From NCBI GenBank assembly GCA_028867285.1, contig JAGWGP010000001.1:1-52556 (forward strand): a DNA stretch of 52,556 nt, given 5' to 3'. A model generated the notes under the pieces. It searched no databases. It was not told the DNA's origin and was given only the letters and a program-made list of their open reading frames with translations. Shown in pieces: positions 4,309 through 37,363 of the stretch. The stretch's first letter is position 1; each line of letters begins with the position of its first letter. Both the position numbers and the translations under genes were made by a program. The DNA comes from Candidatus Micrarchaeota archaeon. GTDB lineage: Archaea; Micrarchaeota; Micrarchaeia; Micrarchaeales; Micrarchaeaceae.

Positions 4309-4422
4309 TGTCAACAGCAACATGATTTCCCGGCCGAAGCCAGTACACACATATCGTAAGCAGGCTTAGCTTCCAAGTTCGGAATGGGTTTGGGCGTTTC
4401 CCTGCTCCTATTACCGTTGACA
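4309..4422 (-). rRNA. rrf: 5S ribosomal RNA (orphan, not linked to 16S/23S in this window)
   Basis: Reverse strand reads TGTCAACGG...GCAGGGAAACGCCCAAACCCATTCCGAACTTGGAAGCTAAGCCTGCTTACGATATGTGTGTACTGGCTTCGGCCGGGAAATCATGTTGCTGTTGACA. It has the universal CCGAAC...GGAAG(C/T)TAAGC loop C/helix III signature. Helix I closes with TGTCAACGG/CTGTTGACA, helix II with GCAGG/CCTGC, and there is a GGC-TTCG-GCC hairpin. Ends are +/- a few nt. Confidence 0.85.
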
Positions 4423-11370: not shown

Positions 11371-11443
11371 GGGGACGTACGCTAACCTGGCAGACTTCCG
11401 CGTTCGGGTCGCGGCTATCCGAGTTCAAATCTCGGCGTCCCCA
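11371..11443 (+). tRNA. tRNA-Pro (anticodon CGG), with an aberrant D-stem
   Basis: Perfect 7-bp acceptor stem (GGGGACG/CGTCCCC, discriminator A). Anticodon arm is CCGCG-TTCGGGT-CGCGG (CGG, G37). T-arm is CCGAG-TTCAAAT-CTCGG. The D-arm (CGCT-AACCTGGC-AGAC) gives only 2 Watson-Crick pairs in any register. Confidence 0.6.
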
Positions 11444-16340: not shown

Positions 16341-16415
16341 TGGGCCTGGTGAGATTTGAACTCACGACATCTGGCTTATAAGACCAGCGCTCTAACCATG
16401 CTGAGCTACAAGCCC
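16341..16415 (-). tRNA. tRNA-Ile (anticodon UAU)
   Basis: Reverse strand reads GGGCTTG-TA-GCTC-AGCATGGTTA-GAGC-G-CTGGT-CTTATAA-GCCAG-ATGTC-GTGAG-TTCAAAT-CTCAC-CAGGCCC-A, a full cloverleaf. Anticodon-loop positions 34-36 are TAT. Confidence 0.85.
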
Positions 16416-31016: not shown

Positions 31017-31089
31017 GCGGGTTTAGTCTAGCCTGGTAGGACTCGAGCTTCCCAAGCTCGTAGCCCGGGTTCAAATCCCGGAGCCCGCA
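31017..31089 (+). tRNA. tRNA-Gly (anticodon CCC)
   Basis: GCGGGTT-TA-GTCT-AGCCTGGTA-GGAC-T-CGAGC-TTCCCAA-GCTCG-TAGC-CCGGG-TTCAAAT-CCCGG-AGCCCGC-A; complete cloverleaf. Confidence 0.9.
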
Positions 31090-31106
31090 CATAACATGGT
31101 GAACAG

Positions 31107-31430
31107 GTGGATCCGCTTTACTTCAACGTACTGGACTACGTGACGATACAGCTCTACGCCTACATAGTCACCAGGAAGATCTTCGAGCGGATGAACAGGA
31201 GGAGGCTGATGCGGCGCGAGAGGCGCAACAGGGAGTTCACCGACCTCGAGAACTTCACCTCCCTGATAGTGAGCTTCATAATAGCGGGCAGCATATTCAG
31301 CGGCATAAGCGGGCTGTTCCCGGACATCGCCGCGCTCAACGCCCCTATCTGGCTAGCAGACCTTGTCCTCATCGGAATCGGCTTCTTCATAGCCAGGGCG
31401 CTCGGACTGCTGGAGAACCCATACGCATAG
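31107..31430 (+). CDS. small membrane protein (2 predicted TM helices, Arg-rich loop)
   Basis: GTG-start ORF with host-like ATA/AGG codons. Hydrophobic segments are LIVSFIIAGSIFSGISGLF and LADLVLIGIGFFIARALGLL. No family recognised. Confidence 0.45.
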   Translation: MDPLYFNVLDYVTIQLYAYIVTRKIFERMNRRRLMRRERRNREFTDLENFTSLIVSFIIAGSIFSGISGLFPDIAALNAPIWLADLVLIGIGFFIARALGLLENPYA

Positions 31431-31495
31431 GCGCCAGCCCCAACAGCAGGCTTAAATATTGGGAGAATCTTATCCAAACTGAGATAGGGGGTGCG

Positions 31496-32698
31496 ATGAA
31501 GTTCCTGGTAGATGCGAACCTTCCTCCCGAGCTTTGCAACCTGTTCGACAGCTACGGCCACATAGCAAAGCACGTCAACGACACCACGTTCAGCAAGGAC
31601 CCGCACATACTCAGGCACGCCATAAGGGAGGGCTACATAATAGTGACCCAGGACATCGGCTTCCAGGAGCGTATTATAGGCCAGTCCATAGGGCCCAAGG
31701 GGCTGTTCATCCCGCCAAAGACCAGCGGGATCCAGATCGCAATCATACCCTCATACTGCAGGGAGGACAGGGGCAGGGTCATGGCCGAGGCATCCAAGCT
31801 AAGGGCCGCGTATCGCCATATGCACAAGGTACATCTTGACGATGACGAGACGCACTCCCCGGGGTGGAAGCACAGGTACTGGGAGCTCAGGGGCGTGCCG
31901 CTCAGGATAGGGGTCTCGGACAGGGAGATAACCGCAAACAGCACCGTAATCATAAGGAAGAACGCCGTCGAGAAGCCGAAACTCGGCATCTGGGGCGTGG
32001 ACGAGAGGCTGGAGGAGCTGGTACGCAAGATGAGCAGGGGGTTCTACCATCTGCCACAGGGCGCAAAGGGGCTGGTGATGATACGCGGCTTCTCCAGGTC
32101 CAACGGCGAGAGGCTGGCCGAGGACCAGAGGAAGAGGATATACGAGGCCCTTGACGGGATGCTCAAGTCCATGGTGACGATATCCTTTGCAAGGGCACAG
32201 CTGGTGGACATAAGGGTCGACAGGGACGCCACCTGCTACAGGATCCACGACAGGGCCACGGGAGGCGGGATATACCTTAACGAGATACGCGAGATACACA
32301 ACTTCGAGGAGAAGCTCGCCTACCTGAGGCAGGCGACCGGCATGAGCTGCTCCAGCATCATAGAGGACCAGGAGAGGGTCGTGAACGGGAGGAAGGTGGT
32401 TAACAGCCACAGGAACTTCCTCAGGGGGCCGCTCAGCTACATAGCCAAGAGGGTGGACACCGCAGCGGCAGCAGGCATAGACGTGACCCTGGAGCACAAC
32501 GTCACCAAGGCCATAAACAAGAAGGACAAGCAGTTCAACAGGTGGGTCAGGGCGGCCGCGCATCCGGAGAGGGCGCTAGAGCTGGAGAGGCTCCTGCAAT
32601 CGGAGCACAAGACCAGGCAGCAGCAGGGCACCAACTTCAAGCAGCCCTACATAATGTCAAACTCCAGCAAAAGCAATAATAAAGTCAAAACCAGATAG
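31496..32698 (+). CDS. fusion protein: DUF5615/Mut7-C-type PIN-like domain + ProRS-type HGTP anticodon-binding domain + unknown 200-aa C-terminal region
   Basis: Residues 1-75 (MKFLVDANLPPELCNLFDSYGHIAKHV...DPHILRHAIREGYIIVTQDIGF) fit the DUF5615 PIN-like pattern. Residues about 85-190 (IQIAIIP...DDDETHSPGWKHRYWELRGVPLRIGVSDREI..TVIIRKN) carry the ProRS hallmark SPGWK..WEL.GVP.RI..G and the anticodon-binding-domain layout. No class II catalytic motifs are present. Confidence 0.6.
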   Translation: MKFLVDANLPPELCNLFDSYGHIAKHVNDTTFSKDPHILRHAIREGYIIVTQDIGFQERIIGQSIGPKGLFIPPKTSGIQIAIIPSYCREDRGRVMAEASKLRAAYRHMHKVHLDDDETHSPGWKHRYWELRGVPLRIGVSDREITANSTVIIRKNAVEKPKLGIWGVDERLEELVRKMSRGFYHLPQGAKGLVMIRGFSRSNGERLAEDQRKRIYEALDGMLKSMVTISFARAQLVDIRVDRDATCYRIHDRATGGGIYLNEIREIHNFEEKLAYLRQATGMSCSSIIEDQERVVNGRKVVNSHRNFLRGPLSYIAKRVDTAAAAGIDVTLEHNVTKAINKKDKQFNRWVRAAAHPERALELERLLQSEHKTRQQQGTNFKQPYIMSNSSKSNNKVKTR

Positions 32699-32704
32699 AT
32701 AGCC

Positions 32705-33001
32705 ATGTCAACCAGGGAGGCGGACCGCAGAAGCGTAAGGGACGAGTTGCTCACCAACCCTACCGAGGCGTCGGTCACCCGCCTGGTCAAGCAGCATCCG
32801 GACATCGCCACTCCCAACGACATAGTCGCGCTTCTGGGAACGGACAACAGGAGGATAGCCAACATAATCATCGAGAACATGGGCAGCATGCCGCTGGTGT
32901 CGCAGAGCGACGCCGTGAAGAGGGCCCTCGAGGCCTACGCGCTCCGCTCAAGCAGGGATCCCGCGTTCCTGGAGAAATACCTGTCATACAGGAGGAGATA
33001 A
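32705..33001 (+). CDS. hypothetical small helical protein (98 aa), second gene of the PIN-fusion operon
   Basis: Starts 6 nt after the preceding stop; host-like codons; no family recognised. Confidence 0.5.
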   Translation: MSTREADRRSVRDELLTNPTEASVTRLVKQHPDIATPNDIVALLGTDNRRIANIIIENMGSMPLVSQSDAVKRALEAYALRSSRDPAFLEKYLSYRRR

Positions 33002-33002
33002 G

Positions 33003-33422
33003 ATGGAGGTCGCAATAAAGGACGGCACAAGGATAAACAGCTCCACCTACTACGCCGCATCGAAGATGGCATACGAGGTGCACCGCCTCCTAGCAACAGC
33101 CCGCGTACTTGACGCCGGGGCAAAGGAGCCGGATACGCTATCCATGGCACTCAGCTATGCTCGCGAGCTGAAGGGCTCTGACAAGCCCCTGCTCAGGCAG
33201 GCGCTCGAGTTCATCGGGCCAAAGCTGATATCCTCATCCGCAGCAGCAGGCAACAAGATGGGGGTAGACCGGATACTCGACCTGGCGATCGGGGAGCTGG
33301 AGCATGTAATGGCCGCAAAGAGGACAGACCCAAAGGCCAACATCTACTCTGCCATACTGTTCAAGGAGCTGTTCGAGTACTACGTAAAGATGAAGCTCGA
33401 GGCGGAGGCCAGGGGGCTATAG
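33003..33422 (+). CDS. hypothetical helical protein (139 aa), third gene of the PIN-fusion operon
   Basis: Starts 1 nt after the preceding stop; no family recognised. Confidence 0.5.
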   Translation: MEVAIKDGTRINSSTYYAASKMAYEVHRLLATARVLDAGAKEPDTLSMALSYARELKGSDKPLLRQALEFIGPKLISSSAAAGNKMGVDRILDLAIGELEHVMAAKRTDPKANIYSAILFKELFEYYVKMKLEAEARGL

Positions 33423-36196: not shown

Positions 36197-37363
36197 TTGG
36201 CGCTGCTCCTCAACTTCGACCAGAAAACGAGGAAGATATGGGCCACTGACCAGTCCACTAAGGACACGCTGGCAAGCGGATTCTTCGGAAGGAAGGAGGA
36301 CGGCAGGCTCGTACTGGCAATCGAGGAGGCGCTATACCTGATCGACATAAGGAACGCGAGGTGCGCATCGCAGGACGGCAGCGAGCTCACCTTCAACCAG
36401 GTCGCCTCGCACTTCGGCAACACCAGCAAGTTCATGGCCAGGTACTTCACCTACAAGGACTGGAGGGACAGGGGGATCATAATCAAGGGCACCGAGGGGC
36501 TGAGGGAGTCGCCAGGCGAGGTGCAGATGAAGAGATACCCGTCGTCCAAGCTCAAGCTCAGGAACTACAGGCTGGAGGGGGTTTTCTATCCCGCAGACCT
36601 GACCACCGTGATAGACGACAACGACAGGGGCAAGCAGATCTACGAGGAGAACTGGTTCGGCCAGTACGCAACCTACAAGATAAGCGAGAGGGGGATACTC
36701 AACAAGCTCGACATATACGAGACCGTGTTCCTGATGGACCAGGGCATCCTGGAGGTTAGGAACTTCACAAGGAAGCAGATAGTCGACACCGCGACAGAGA
36801 GGAGGCCCGACTTCGAGAAGCTCTACGAGGTCTTCTCGGACTGGAGGGGCAAGGGCTACGTGATAAAGACGGGCTTCAAGTTCGGCACGCACTTCAGGGT
36901 GTACTTCCCTGGCGCAAAGCCGATCAAGACCGACGACAGCGAATGGGCCCACTCCAAGCACGTGATACACGTCTTCCCCAGGGACGCCAAGCTGCTCATC
37001 TCCGAATGGGCCAGGGTGATAAGGGTGGCGCACTCGGTGAGGAAGACATTCATACTGGCCATACCCGGCAAGAGCAGGAAGAAGAACGTCGACATCGACT
37101 TCGTGCTGTACCACAGGAAGGGCACCAACGTAGAGACGCCGGAGAACTCGAAGCCGAGGTTCGGCATGCTCTCCCTGAGCGAGGAGGAGTACATAGGCGG
37201 GGCTGAGCTATCGGCAATAATAAACAAGGCCAAGGCCTACAGGATGGAGCTGATAATAGCTATAGCGGACAGGGAGACGGCGGTCACCTACTACAGGGTG
37301 AGGAGGCTCGAGCTTCCAAAGAGCCCATACGAGTACTACGAGATAGACTGGATGCAGCCCTGA
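36197..37363 (+). CDS. endA: tRNA-splicing endonuclease EndA, enlarged multi-unit form (388 aa)
   Basis: The catalytic unit is WRGKGYVIKTGFKFGTHFRVY...AHSKHVIHV...RKTF (Tyr/His/Lys triad spacing). It is preceded by a degenerate unit (FMARYFTYKDWRDRGIIIKG) and followed by an extra C-terminal unit (AELSAIINKAKAYRMELIIAIADRETAVTYYRV). TTG start 4 nt after the dph5 stop. Confidence 0.85.
   Translation: MALLLNFDQKTRKIWATDQSTKDTLASGFFGRKEDGRLVLAIEEALYLIDIRNARCASQDGSELTFNQVASHFGNTSKFMARYFTYKDWRDRGIIIKGTEGLRESPGEVQMKRYPSSKLKLRNYRLEGVFYPADLTTVIDDNDRGKQIYEENWFGQYATYKISERGILNKLDIYETVFLMDQGILEVRNFTRKQIVDTATERRPDFEKLYEVFSDWRGKGYVIKTGFKFGTHFRVYFPGAKPIKTDDSEWAHSKHVIHVFPRDAKLLISEWARVIRVAHSVRKTFILAIPGKSRKKNVDIDFVLYHRKGTNVETPENSKPRFGMLSLSEEEYIGGAELSAIINKAKAYRMELIIAIADRETAVTYYRVRRLELPKSPYEYYEIDWMQP

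Follow-up and report, generated by a model that had tools for sequence, protein, structure and literature searches.

The PIN-like proteins of the Mut7-C group (COG4634, PIN_10) carry a reduced, deteriorated PIN fold with three to five active-site residues, and their activity is species-dependent (PMC5499597). Members of the DUF5615/COG4634/PIN_10 set have also been predicted to be toxins of toxin-antitoxin (TA) systems with DUF433 proteins as antitoxin partners (PMC5499597, Matelska et al. 2017). Here we describe a relative of these proteins from Candidatus Micrarchaeota archaeon (assembly GCA_028867285.1) in which sequence comparison places the anticodon-binding domain (ABD) of a prolyl-tRNA synthetase (ProRS) inside the PIN-like domain. 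It is the product of gene 1, the first gene of a three-gene operon on contig JAGWGP010000001.1. Positions 1 to 52,556 of this contig, read on the forward strand, were analyzed, and we refer to the whole 52,556-nucleotide stretch as the window.

Gene 1 shares with the DUF5615 group the reduced PIN-like core, the first Asp after strand 1 and a T-x-D motif. However, typical members of the group are small and stand beside a DUF433 gene, whereas the domain in gene 1 is split by an insert of 123 aa and belongs to a 400-aa product with an extra domain of ~140 aa and a tail, in a conserved chromosomal context. The insert has its counterpart in ProRS (TIGR00408; PDB 1h4q, 1nj8 and 5xif), where residues ~272-398, corresponding to ~64-188 of gene 1, comprise the linker that follows motif 3, the class IIa ABD and a trailing helix. 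In contrast to ProRS, gene 1 has neither the catalytic core (motifs 1-3) nor the C-terminal zinc-binding domain, and several residues invariant in the synthetase are replaced. VapC tRNases, which cut specific tRNAs at the anticodon stem-loop, likewise belong to the PIN superfamily, and the likeness goes further only if the tRNA inference discussed below is right. They are single-domain proteins in which the PIN domain itself reads the tRNA and which have an upstream VapB, whereas gene 1 contains a reader derived from an aminoacyl-tRNA synthetase and has no such antitoxin. Nor does the locus look like a VapBC module in other respects: no DNA-binding antitoxin lies adjacent upstream, and the distribution, over five syntenic loci, is neither patchy nor mobile.

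A housekeeping rather than a toxin precedent is offered by PRORP and HARP, the protein-only RNase P enzymes, which are PIN-like/NYN metallonucleases guided to tRNA by extra elements; in PRORP, PPR repeats bind the tRNA elbow and the 5' leader is cut. Beyond the superfamily they have no sequence relation to gene 1. Reuse of a class IIa ABD-like domain outside aminoacylation is seen in the accessory subunit of DNA polymerase gamma, a protein resembling class IIa aminoacyl-tRNA synthetases that binds the polymerase and DNA, but this subunit retains the whole synthetase-like fold and has no nuclease. To our knowledge, synthetase anticodon-binding domains are rarely met outside aminoacylation, and VapC, PRORP and HARP, the tRNases of the PIN superfamily that have been studied, find their tRNAs in other ways. 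The nearest precedent comes from some oomycete Mut7 proteins, in which a Mut7-C domain is combined with an aminoacyl-tRNA editing domain (PMC5499597). Both cases join a Mut7-C PIN-like domain to a domain from aminoacyl-tRNA synthetase biology, but the oomycete proteins are eukaryotic linear fusions with an editing domain, whereas gene 1 is archaeal and carries an anticodon-binding insert. The combination of PIN-like and HGTP_anticodon domains has no description in the searched literature, Pfam, PADLOC or PHROGs, in line with an earlier note on this DNA, which knew of no described system with this architecture.

The three open reading frames (ORFs) of the operon follow each other with spacers of 6 nt (gene 1/gene 2) and 1 nt (gene 2/gene 3):

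31496-32698, forward strand: gene 1, a protein of 400 aa with PIN-like, ProRS-ABD and C-terminal domains (ORF with ATG start)
32705-33001, forward strand: gene 2, a basic protein of 98 aa (ORF with ATG start)
33003-33422, forward strand: gene 3, a basic protein of 139 aa (ORF with ATG start)

In Pfam, the DUF5615 profile (PF18480) matches residues 1-72 of gene 1 over profile positions 1-74 of 110 (51.6 bits against a cut-off of 23.8, E 9.5e-14), PIN_10 scores 27.9 bits against a cut-off of 26.2 (E 2.6e-6), and HGTP_anticodon (PF03129) covers residues 82-155 with 34.1 bits against a cut-off of 21 (E 3.1e-8). The archaeal/eukaryote-type ProRS model proS_fam_I of NCBIfam (TIGR00408) aligns its positions 251-389 of 475 with residues 51-184 (E 2.5e-19), with a score of 69.5 bits that is far under the full-length equivalog cut-off of 437. 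Similarly, a profile built from gene 1 together with the two full-length homologues matched 27 solved ProRS sequences in the PDB (best E 2e-16), residues 64-188 of gene 1 aligning with 272-398 of ProRS, and the motifs IQIAIIP, SPGWKHRYWELRGVPLRIGVS and TVIIRKN are all present in the gene 1 product. By these profile comparisons, the matches to a PIN-like domain and to a ProRS-type ABD are real and far beyond chance. The earlier note had therefore described the locus well at this level: its three ORFs with their coordinates and spacers are borne out, both domain assignments (DUF5615/PIN-like and ProRS-type HGTP) are correct, with Pfam, NCBIfam and PDB matches that are above cut-offs or strong, and the DUF5615 and HGTP_anticodon matches that it expected from a profile search were both obtained.

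The same note had read gene 1 as a linear fusion led by a module of about 75 aa, and here it was wrong. The comparison shows a domain insertion, because relatives of 244-299 aa that lack the ABD align on both sides of it and because its excision extends the DUF5615 match; the ABD lies in the loop before the last β-strand of the PIN-like domain, within a pre-existing protein family made of the PIN-like and C-terminal domains. When the ABD-less relative P0034 was searched against the window with tblastn, its residues 1-60 aligned with 31496-31675 and its residues 53-253 with 32000-32623, two segments that flank the insert. In-silico removal of residues 68-187 moves the end of the DUF5615 match from 74 to 84 and its score from 51.6 to 54.3 bits, and in the ABD-less relatives the match takes in the strand (P)KGLVMI(K/R)G and ends at profile positions 82-90. 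The stretch of about 200 aa that the earlier note could not assign is not one block but consists of the remainder of the PIN-like domain, the C-terminal domain and a basic tail. The parts of gene 1, all on the forward strand, are delimited as follows:

31496-31696, forward strand: PIN-like domain (DUF5615/PIN_10, Mut7-C group), part 1, residues 1-67 (Pfam, alignments, tblastn of P0034)
31697-32065, forward strand: inserted ProRS-type (E-type) class IIa ABD with its trailing helix, residues 68-190 (profiles and PDB matches; absent from P0030-P0035)
32066-32194, forward strand: PIN-like domain, part 2, with the last strand KGLVMIRG and the next helix, residues 191-~233 (excision test, ABD-less relatives)
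32195-32605, forward strand: conserved C-terminal domain, residues ~234-370 (common to all relatives)
32606-32695, forward strand: basic tail rich in Lys, Ser and Asn, residues 371-400, with the conserved motif Y-[IM]-[MV]-SN..KSN (predicted disordered)

A direct repeat bounds the insert, K68-G-L-F-I (AAGGGGCTGTTCAT, 31697-31710) on one side and K191-G-L-V-M (AAGGGGCTGGTGAT, 32066-32079) on the other. The string KGLVM is found in both parents, namely in the ProRS linker (HGDDKGLVMPP) and in the strand that closes the PIN-like domain of relatives lacking the ABD (PKGLVMIKG). It is plausible that the insertion arose by recombination at this shared string, of which the KGLFI/KGLVM pair would be the scar, although short two-copy repeats can be chance.

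An exhaustive search for the family, in which residues 164-400 of gene 1 (downstream of the ABD core) were compared with 1.84 billion representative proteins, returned only seven clusters, and a word-index search with a nine-sequence profile of the C-terminal domain gave no additional members. All members named by their source are labelled Micrarchaeota and the rest are unlabelled metagenomic sequences. In six of the seven clusters, P0030-P0035 with lengths of 113-299 aa, the N-terminal DUF5615 and C-terminal regions are the same but the ABD is absent. The ABD-bearing form of this PIN-like nuclease family is real but very rare, being represented by three sequences: the one in the window and those at the loci L001 and L002. 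At the P0030 locus and on L011, a 587-kb contig, an ABD-less gene 1 has a conserved Pro-rich loop of 28 aa where the ABD sits elsewhere, and the similarity of the P0030 loop to the start of the ABD is too weak to decide between gain and loss. With clade 2 (P0031, P0033 and P0034) as outgroup, the most parsimonious history is that the ABD was gained once, in the common ancestor of the three proteins from the window, L001 and L002; alternatively, it may have been lost in the P0030 lineage. ABD-plus and ABD-minus orthologues at one locus provide a natural before-and-after pair for domain insertion.

The clade 2 genes are solitary. They stand in another conserved context, without gene 2 or gene 3, in the order TRAM-domain gene, divergent ORF of 134-172 aa, gene 1 homologue, convergent HAD hydrolase gene and leucyl-tRNA synthetase (LeuRS). 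The divergent ORF (L005 7384-7869, L007 2195-2599 and L008 206-724, each on the reverse strand) has the motifs ENTPLI.FHYTQLREAG and SGSRF; hhalign relates it to neither gene 2 nor gene 3, whose functional counterpart it may be.

Full-length homologues of gene 1 occur on a contig from ENA (63% identity) and in the Candidatus Micrarchaeota metagenome-assembled genome REEA17 (GCA_028867845.1; 47%). Because the gene is kept in three independent assemblies, at 47-64% identity and with a ratio of nonsynonymous to synonymous substitution rates (dN/dS, Nei-Gojobori) of 0.25-0.45, it is a real, constrained gene. For the gene in the window the ratio is 0.43-0.45. Taken part by part, the first PIN-like part has dN/dS of 0.21-0.41, the ABD of 0.28-0.61 and the C-terminal domain of 0.20-0.30. 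Two trivial origins were ruled out. A decayed proS pseudogene would not fit an intact, constrained ORF in three assemblies and the absence of any catalytic-core remnant in any frame, and an assembly chimera would not recur with identical architecture in three independent assemblies. When three ProRS proteins were searched against the whole window with tblastn, the only match was the in-frame ABD at 31658-32044, with no remnants of motifs 1-3 in any frame and no bona fide proS within the 52 kb; the earlier statement that the ABD comes without an aminoacylation core holds in all frames. Two antisense ORFs overlap gene 1 (31160-31618, reverse strand, 152 aa; 31799-32563, reverse strand, 254 aa) and may be simple by-products of a GC content of 56-60%, given that the plus-strand frame of gene 1 is conserved.

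Our preferred reading, which draws on sequence features and is held tentatively, at somewhat less than even confidence, is that gene 1 codes for a PIN-like RNase, specific to this lineage, to which a docking module for tRNA anticodon stem-loops was added. Its product would be a metal-dependent ribonuclease of the Mut7-C/DUF5615 type, whose ancestral form consisted of the PIN-like domain and the C-terminal domain of ~140 aa, and one sub-lineage took up the ABD of an archaeal/eukaryote-type ProRS. The ABD may dock an anticodon stem-loop, most likely that of tRNA(Pro), with the archaeal identity elements G35 and G36, or else a similar one if specificity has drifted, and would thereby bring the RNA to the acidic site formed by D6, D35 and D53, where it would be cut or processed. 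Further RNA-binding or regulatory subunits could be provided by the proteins of genes 2 and 3 together with the tail and the basic C-terminal domain, the two partner proteins probably being linked to the enzyme before the ABD arrived, or independently of it. The operon itself is a resident chromosomal locus with its own conserved putative promoter.

For the nuclease part, this proposal draws on the three acidic residues D6, D35 and D53, which are kept in every relative with an N-terminus, in both clades, despite an overall identity of 26-34%, and on the membership of gene 1 in the Mut7-C group of reduced PIN nucleases. For RNA binding it draws on the basic character of the proteins, with isoelectric points (pI) of 8.8-9.8 for the products of genes 1-3 (8.8-9.7 for genes 2 and 3), 9.8 for the ABD and 11.3 for the tail, and on the recognition of tRNA(Pro) by archaeal ProRS, which relies mainly on the anticodon bases G35 and G36 (PMC11229370). 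Also bearing on RNA binding is a tRNA-Pro(CGG) gene in the window (11371-11443, forward strand), which was found by ARAGORN and missed by a whole-window Rfam scan at the gathering threshold. A targeted scan gave it 42 bits against a cut-off of 29 bits, with two non-standard D-stem pairs, and we consider this tRNA a candidate substrate of gene 1. A bolder version, which we think unlikely, is that of a natural anticodon-guided ribonuclease whose ABD selects tRNA-Pro (NGG) for cleavage or processing and which, with its C-terminal domain and the proteins of genes 2 and 3, forms a new tRNA-control complex in DPANN archaea. If true, this would be the first nuclease retargeted by capture of the tRNA-identity module of a synthetase, and a compact, testable model for anticodon-specific tRNA cleavage.

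Of the 34 positions with at least 85% conservation among 22 ProRS sequences, the inserts keep 18-20, and the HGDD loop is shortened. In the block W124-N148 (WK.RYWELRGVPLR.GVS...IT.N), 19 of 25 residues are identical in all three inserts, compared with 32% over the whole insert; this near-invariance suggests that a binding surface is constrained, with a specificity that is possibly altered. As a whole, the ABD is less conserved than any other folded part of gene 1, with 37-55% identity and dN/dS of up to 0.61 in the window lineage. The AlphaFold2 (AF2) model of the full-length protein, built from three sequences, reached a predicted local distance difference test score (pLDDT) of 44 and is unusable as a structure; the order β-α-β-α-β-β-β-α of the class IIa ABD is kept. 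A search for the donor of the domain returned ProRS matches of at most 37% identity, with a bacterial one as the sole named cluster, and identified no donor.

The C-terminal domain is the best-conserved part of gene 1 and is common to all relatives, with the motifs CYRIHDR, LNEIREIH.FE.KL, IEDQ..VNG, SHRNFLR and NVTKAINK..KQFN.W. Its AF2 model from nine sequences (pLDDT 63, helices 85-92) consists of a β-meander of three strands and, after it, a helical bundle. In the ABD-less P0033 (L007 2818-3678), the first helix of this domain contains a tandem duplication of ~18 aa (HLDEIRQIYDLEEKPEAE / HLHEIRQIYDLEEK). Genes 2 and 3 have no match in Pfam, NCBIfam, the PDB, PHROGs or PADLOC and are unrelated to each other by hhalign. 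Gene 2 is a single copy in the window and L001, and it occurs as two diverged tandem copies (~100 and ~115 aa) in L002 (8516-9170), L004 (2942-3592) and L011 (5901-6566). Gene 3, with the motifs INSSTYYAASK and TDP..NIYS.ILFKELFEYY..M...AEARGL, is found in only five clusters among 5.8 billion proteins. One of its homologues, P0038, is labelled 'Candidatus Acidoferrales bacterium' in NCBI, and the same cluster is present on L011 (Ga0307374_10000001, 586,870 bp) with a Micrarchaeota-type locus; the label is probably a binning or labelling error, and L011 may represent a nearly complete genome from Micrarchaeota. Both genes also stand beside ABD-less orthologues of gene 1 at the same locus, and their partnership with gene 1 is therefore independent of the ABD. 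The C-terminal domain and the proteins of genes 2 and 3 represent two unassigned components of a small family, so far seen only in genome-reduced symbiotic archaea.

The neighbourhood of the operon is conserved as well. In five related loci, and as far as the contigs reach, the order is aIF2-alpha, PAC2, tRNA-Gly(CCC), gene 1, one or two copies of gene 2, gene 3, DUF92 on the opposite strand, RadA, diphthine synthase and tRNA-splicing endonuclease, so that the three genes are co-conserved, as the earlier note had asked of relatives. That note had also placed the operon just after tRNA-Gly and a small ORF with hydrophobic segments, which is correct. Upstream of gene 1 the following features are found:

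31017-31090, forward strand: tRNA-Gly(CCC), directly upstream of gene 1 in every locus with an available and conserved upstream flank
31107-31430, forward strand: small ORF that separates tRNA-Gly from gene 1, with two hydrophobic segments and Arg-rich at its N-terminus
31447-31464, forward strand: TATA/BRE-like element GCAGGCTTAAATATTGGG, ~40 nt before the ATG of gene 1 (conservation across four upstream regions)

The small ORF is 87-88% identical in L001 and is a real gene, since its dN/dS in this comparison is 0.09; the internal ATG at 31192 may be its true start. It is missing from L002 and L004, where gene 1 begins only ~70-80 nt after the tRNA. The window, L001, L002 and L004 share the invariant string GCTTA[A/T]ATATT ahead of gene 1, and GCAGGCTTAAATATTGGG is a putative promoter by its resemblance to the archaeal TATA consensus. 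Between genomes, identity is 62-99% for the flanking genes, whose dN/dS is 0.01-0.25, and 32-78% for genes 1-3, whose dN/dS is 0.19-0.62; the dN/dS of the operon is three to five times that of its housekeeping flanks. By these comparisons the operon is vertically inherited but fast-evolving, because its dS is similar to that of the flanks, its dN/dS is raised and its synteny is conserved. A mobile or viral island beside a tRNA gene was ruled out: the GC content of the operon equals that of the flanks, dS does not differ from theirs, no att-like repeats of the tRNA-Gly end were seen around the operon, no relatives were found in viral contigs, and the locus has no integrase. Three genes downstream, and kept in all related loci, lies a tRNA-splicing endonuclease of 388 aa (36197-37363, forward strand; tRNA_int_endo_N and tRNA_int_endo), whose length may reflect the fused multi-unit form reported for ARMAN-type archaea.

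Several observations weigh against the tRNA-docking RNase. The second Asp of the T-x-D-x-D-F motif (D55), present in clade 2, is replaced in all proteins of the locus found in the window (TQDIGF, SHDARF, TRDIGL), so that catalysis is not assured, and by general Rossmann-like topology the insertion point, between a helix and the next strand, would lie on the face opposite the catalytic loops. All three inserts are changed at the ProRS-invariant positions E139G, G141S, F126H/N and D156N/G/R, and the specificity for tRNA(Pro) may therefore be altered or lost. ABD-bearing sequences number only three, the ABD is dispensable both for the gene 1 family and for the partnership with genes 2 and 3, and the C-terminal domain has no fold match in Pfam (nine family members), among PDB sequences or by Foldseek against the PDB and BFVD, the best Foldseek hits of the pLDDT-63 model having E 0.3-0.8 and a template modelling (TM) score below 0.25. 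The ABD could instead be an exapted scaffold, a structural, protein-binding or generic nucleic-acid-binding insert that reads no tRNA, comparable to the ABD-like domain of the DNA polymerase gamma accessory subunit, with the function residing in the PIN-like and C-terminal domains. We regard this as a doubtful explanation, if a serious one: it accommodates the ABD-less orthologues that keep the same partner genes at the same locus, the substitutions common to all three inserts, and the contrast between the ABD, least conserved of the folded parts, and the C-terminal domain, most constrained of all. However, a structural insert would not need to keep a ProRS-specific core motif as well as W124-N148 is kept, and the whole insert is under purifying selection and basic. 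The loss of D55, together with the deteriorated fold and species-dependent activity described for the Mut7-C group (PMC5499597), would also fit a catalytically dead factor, in which a pseudo-nuclease domain sequesters, senses or chaperones tRNA or another RNA. This we consider very improbable, as D6, D35 and D53 would scarcely have stayed invariant across both clades unless they bind metal or take part in catalysis.

The earlier note had further raised a toxin or immunity module. In a module of this kind, or in a defence module, gene 1 would act as a toxin that cleaves tRNA(Pro), genes 2 and 3 would supply the antitoxin or immunity function, and the whole would serve in addiction, abortive infection or host-symbiont conflict. 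The prediction of TA toxins within DUF5615/COG4634/PIN_10 (PMC5499597) and the tight coupling of the operon speak for it, as do the three- to fivefold raised dN/dS at equal dS and the duplication of gene 2 in some lineages, which are typical of conflict genes. Against this stands the setting of the genes. As the note had itself remarked, there is no DUF433 partner, either in the window operon or in any related locus, and no other DNA-binding antitoxin lies upstream; the candidate antitoxins are encoded downstream of gene 1 and are basic rather than acidic. None of the three proteins has a PADLOC match at E up to 1, nor a PHROG match. In these reduced genomes the locus keeps its synteny and has been passed on vertically, with native GC and none of the marks of mobility, and the clade 2 relatives manage without gene 2 or gene 3. 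Context, vertical inheritance and basic partners all argue against a classical TA cassette, which makes a toxin or immunity function improbable in our view.

Two further RNA genes in the window deserve mention. A 5S rRNA gene (4309-4421, reverse strand, 72 bits) stands alone, with no 16S or 23S rRNA detected in the window. A tRNA-Ile with the anticodon TAT (UAU) is encoded at 16341-16415 on the reverse strand. AUA is decoded in most archaea by a tRNA with a modified CAU anticodon, which makes a UAU tRNA-Ile unusual, and this one may be informative on AUA decoding in this lineage.

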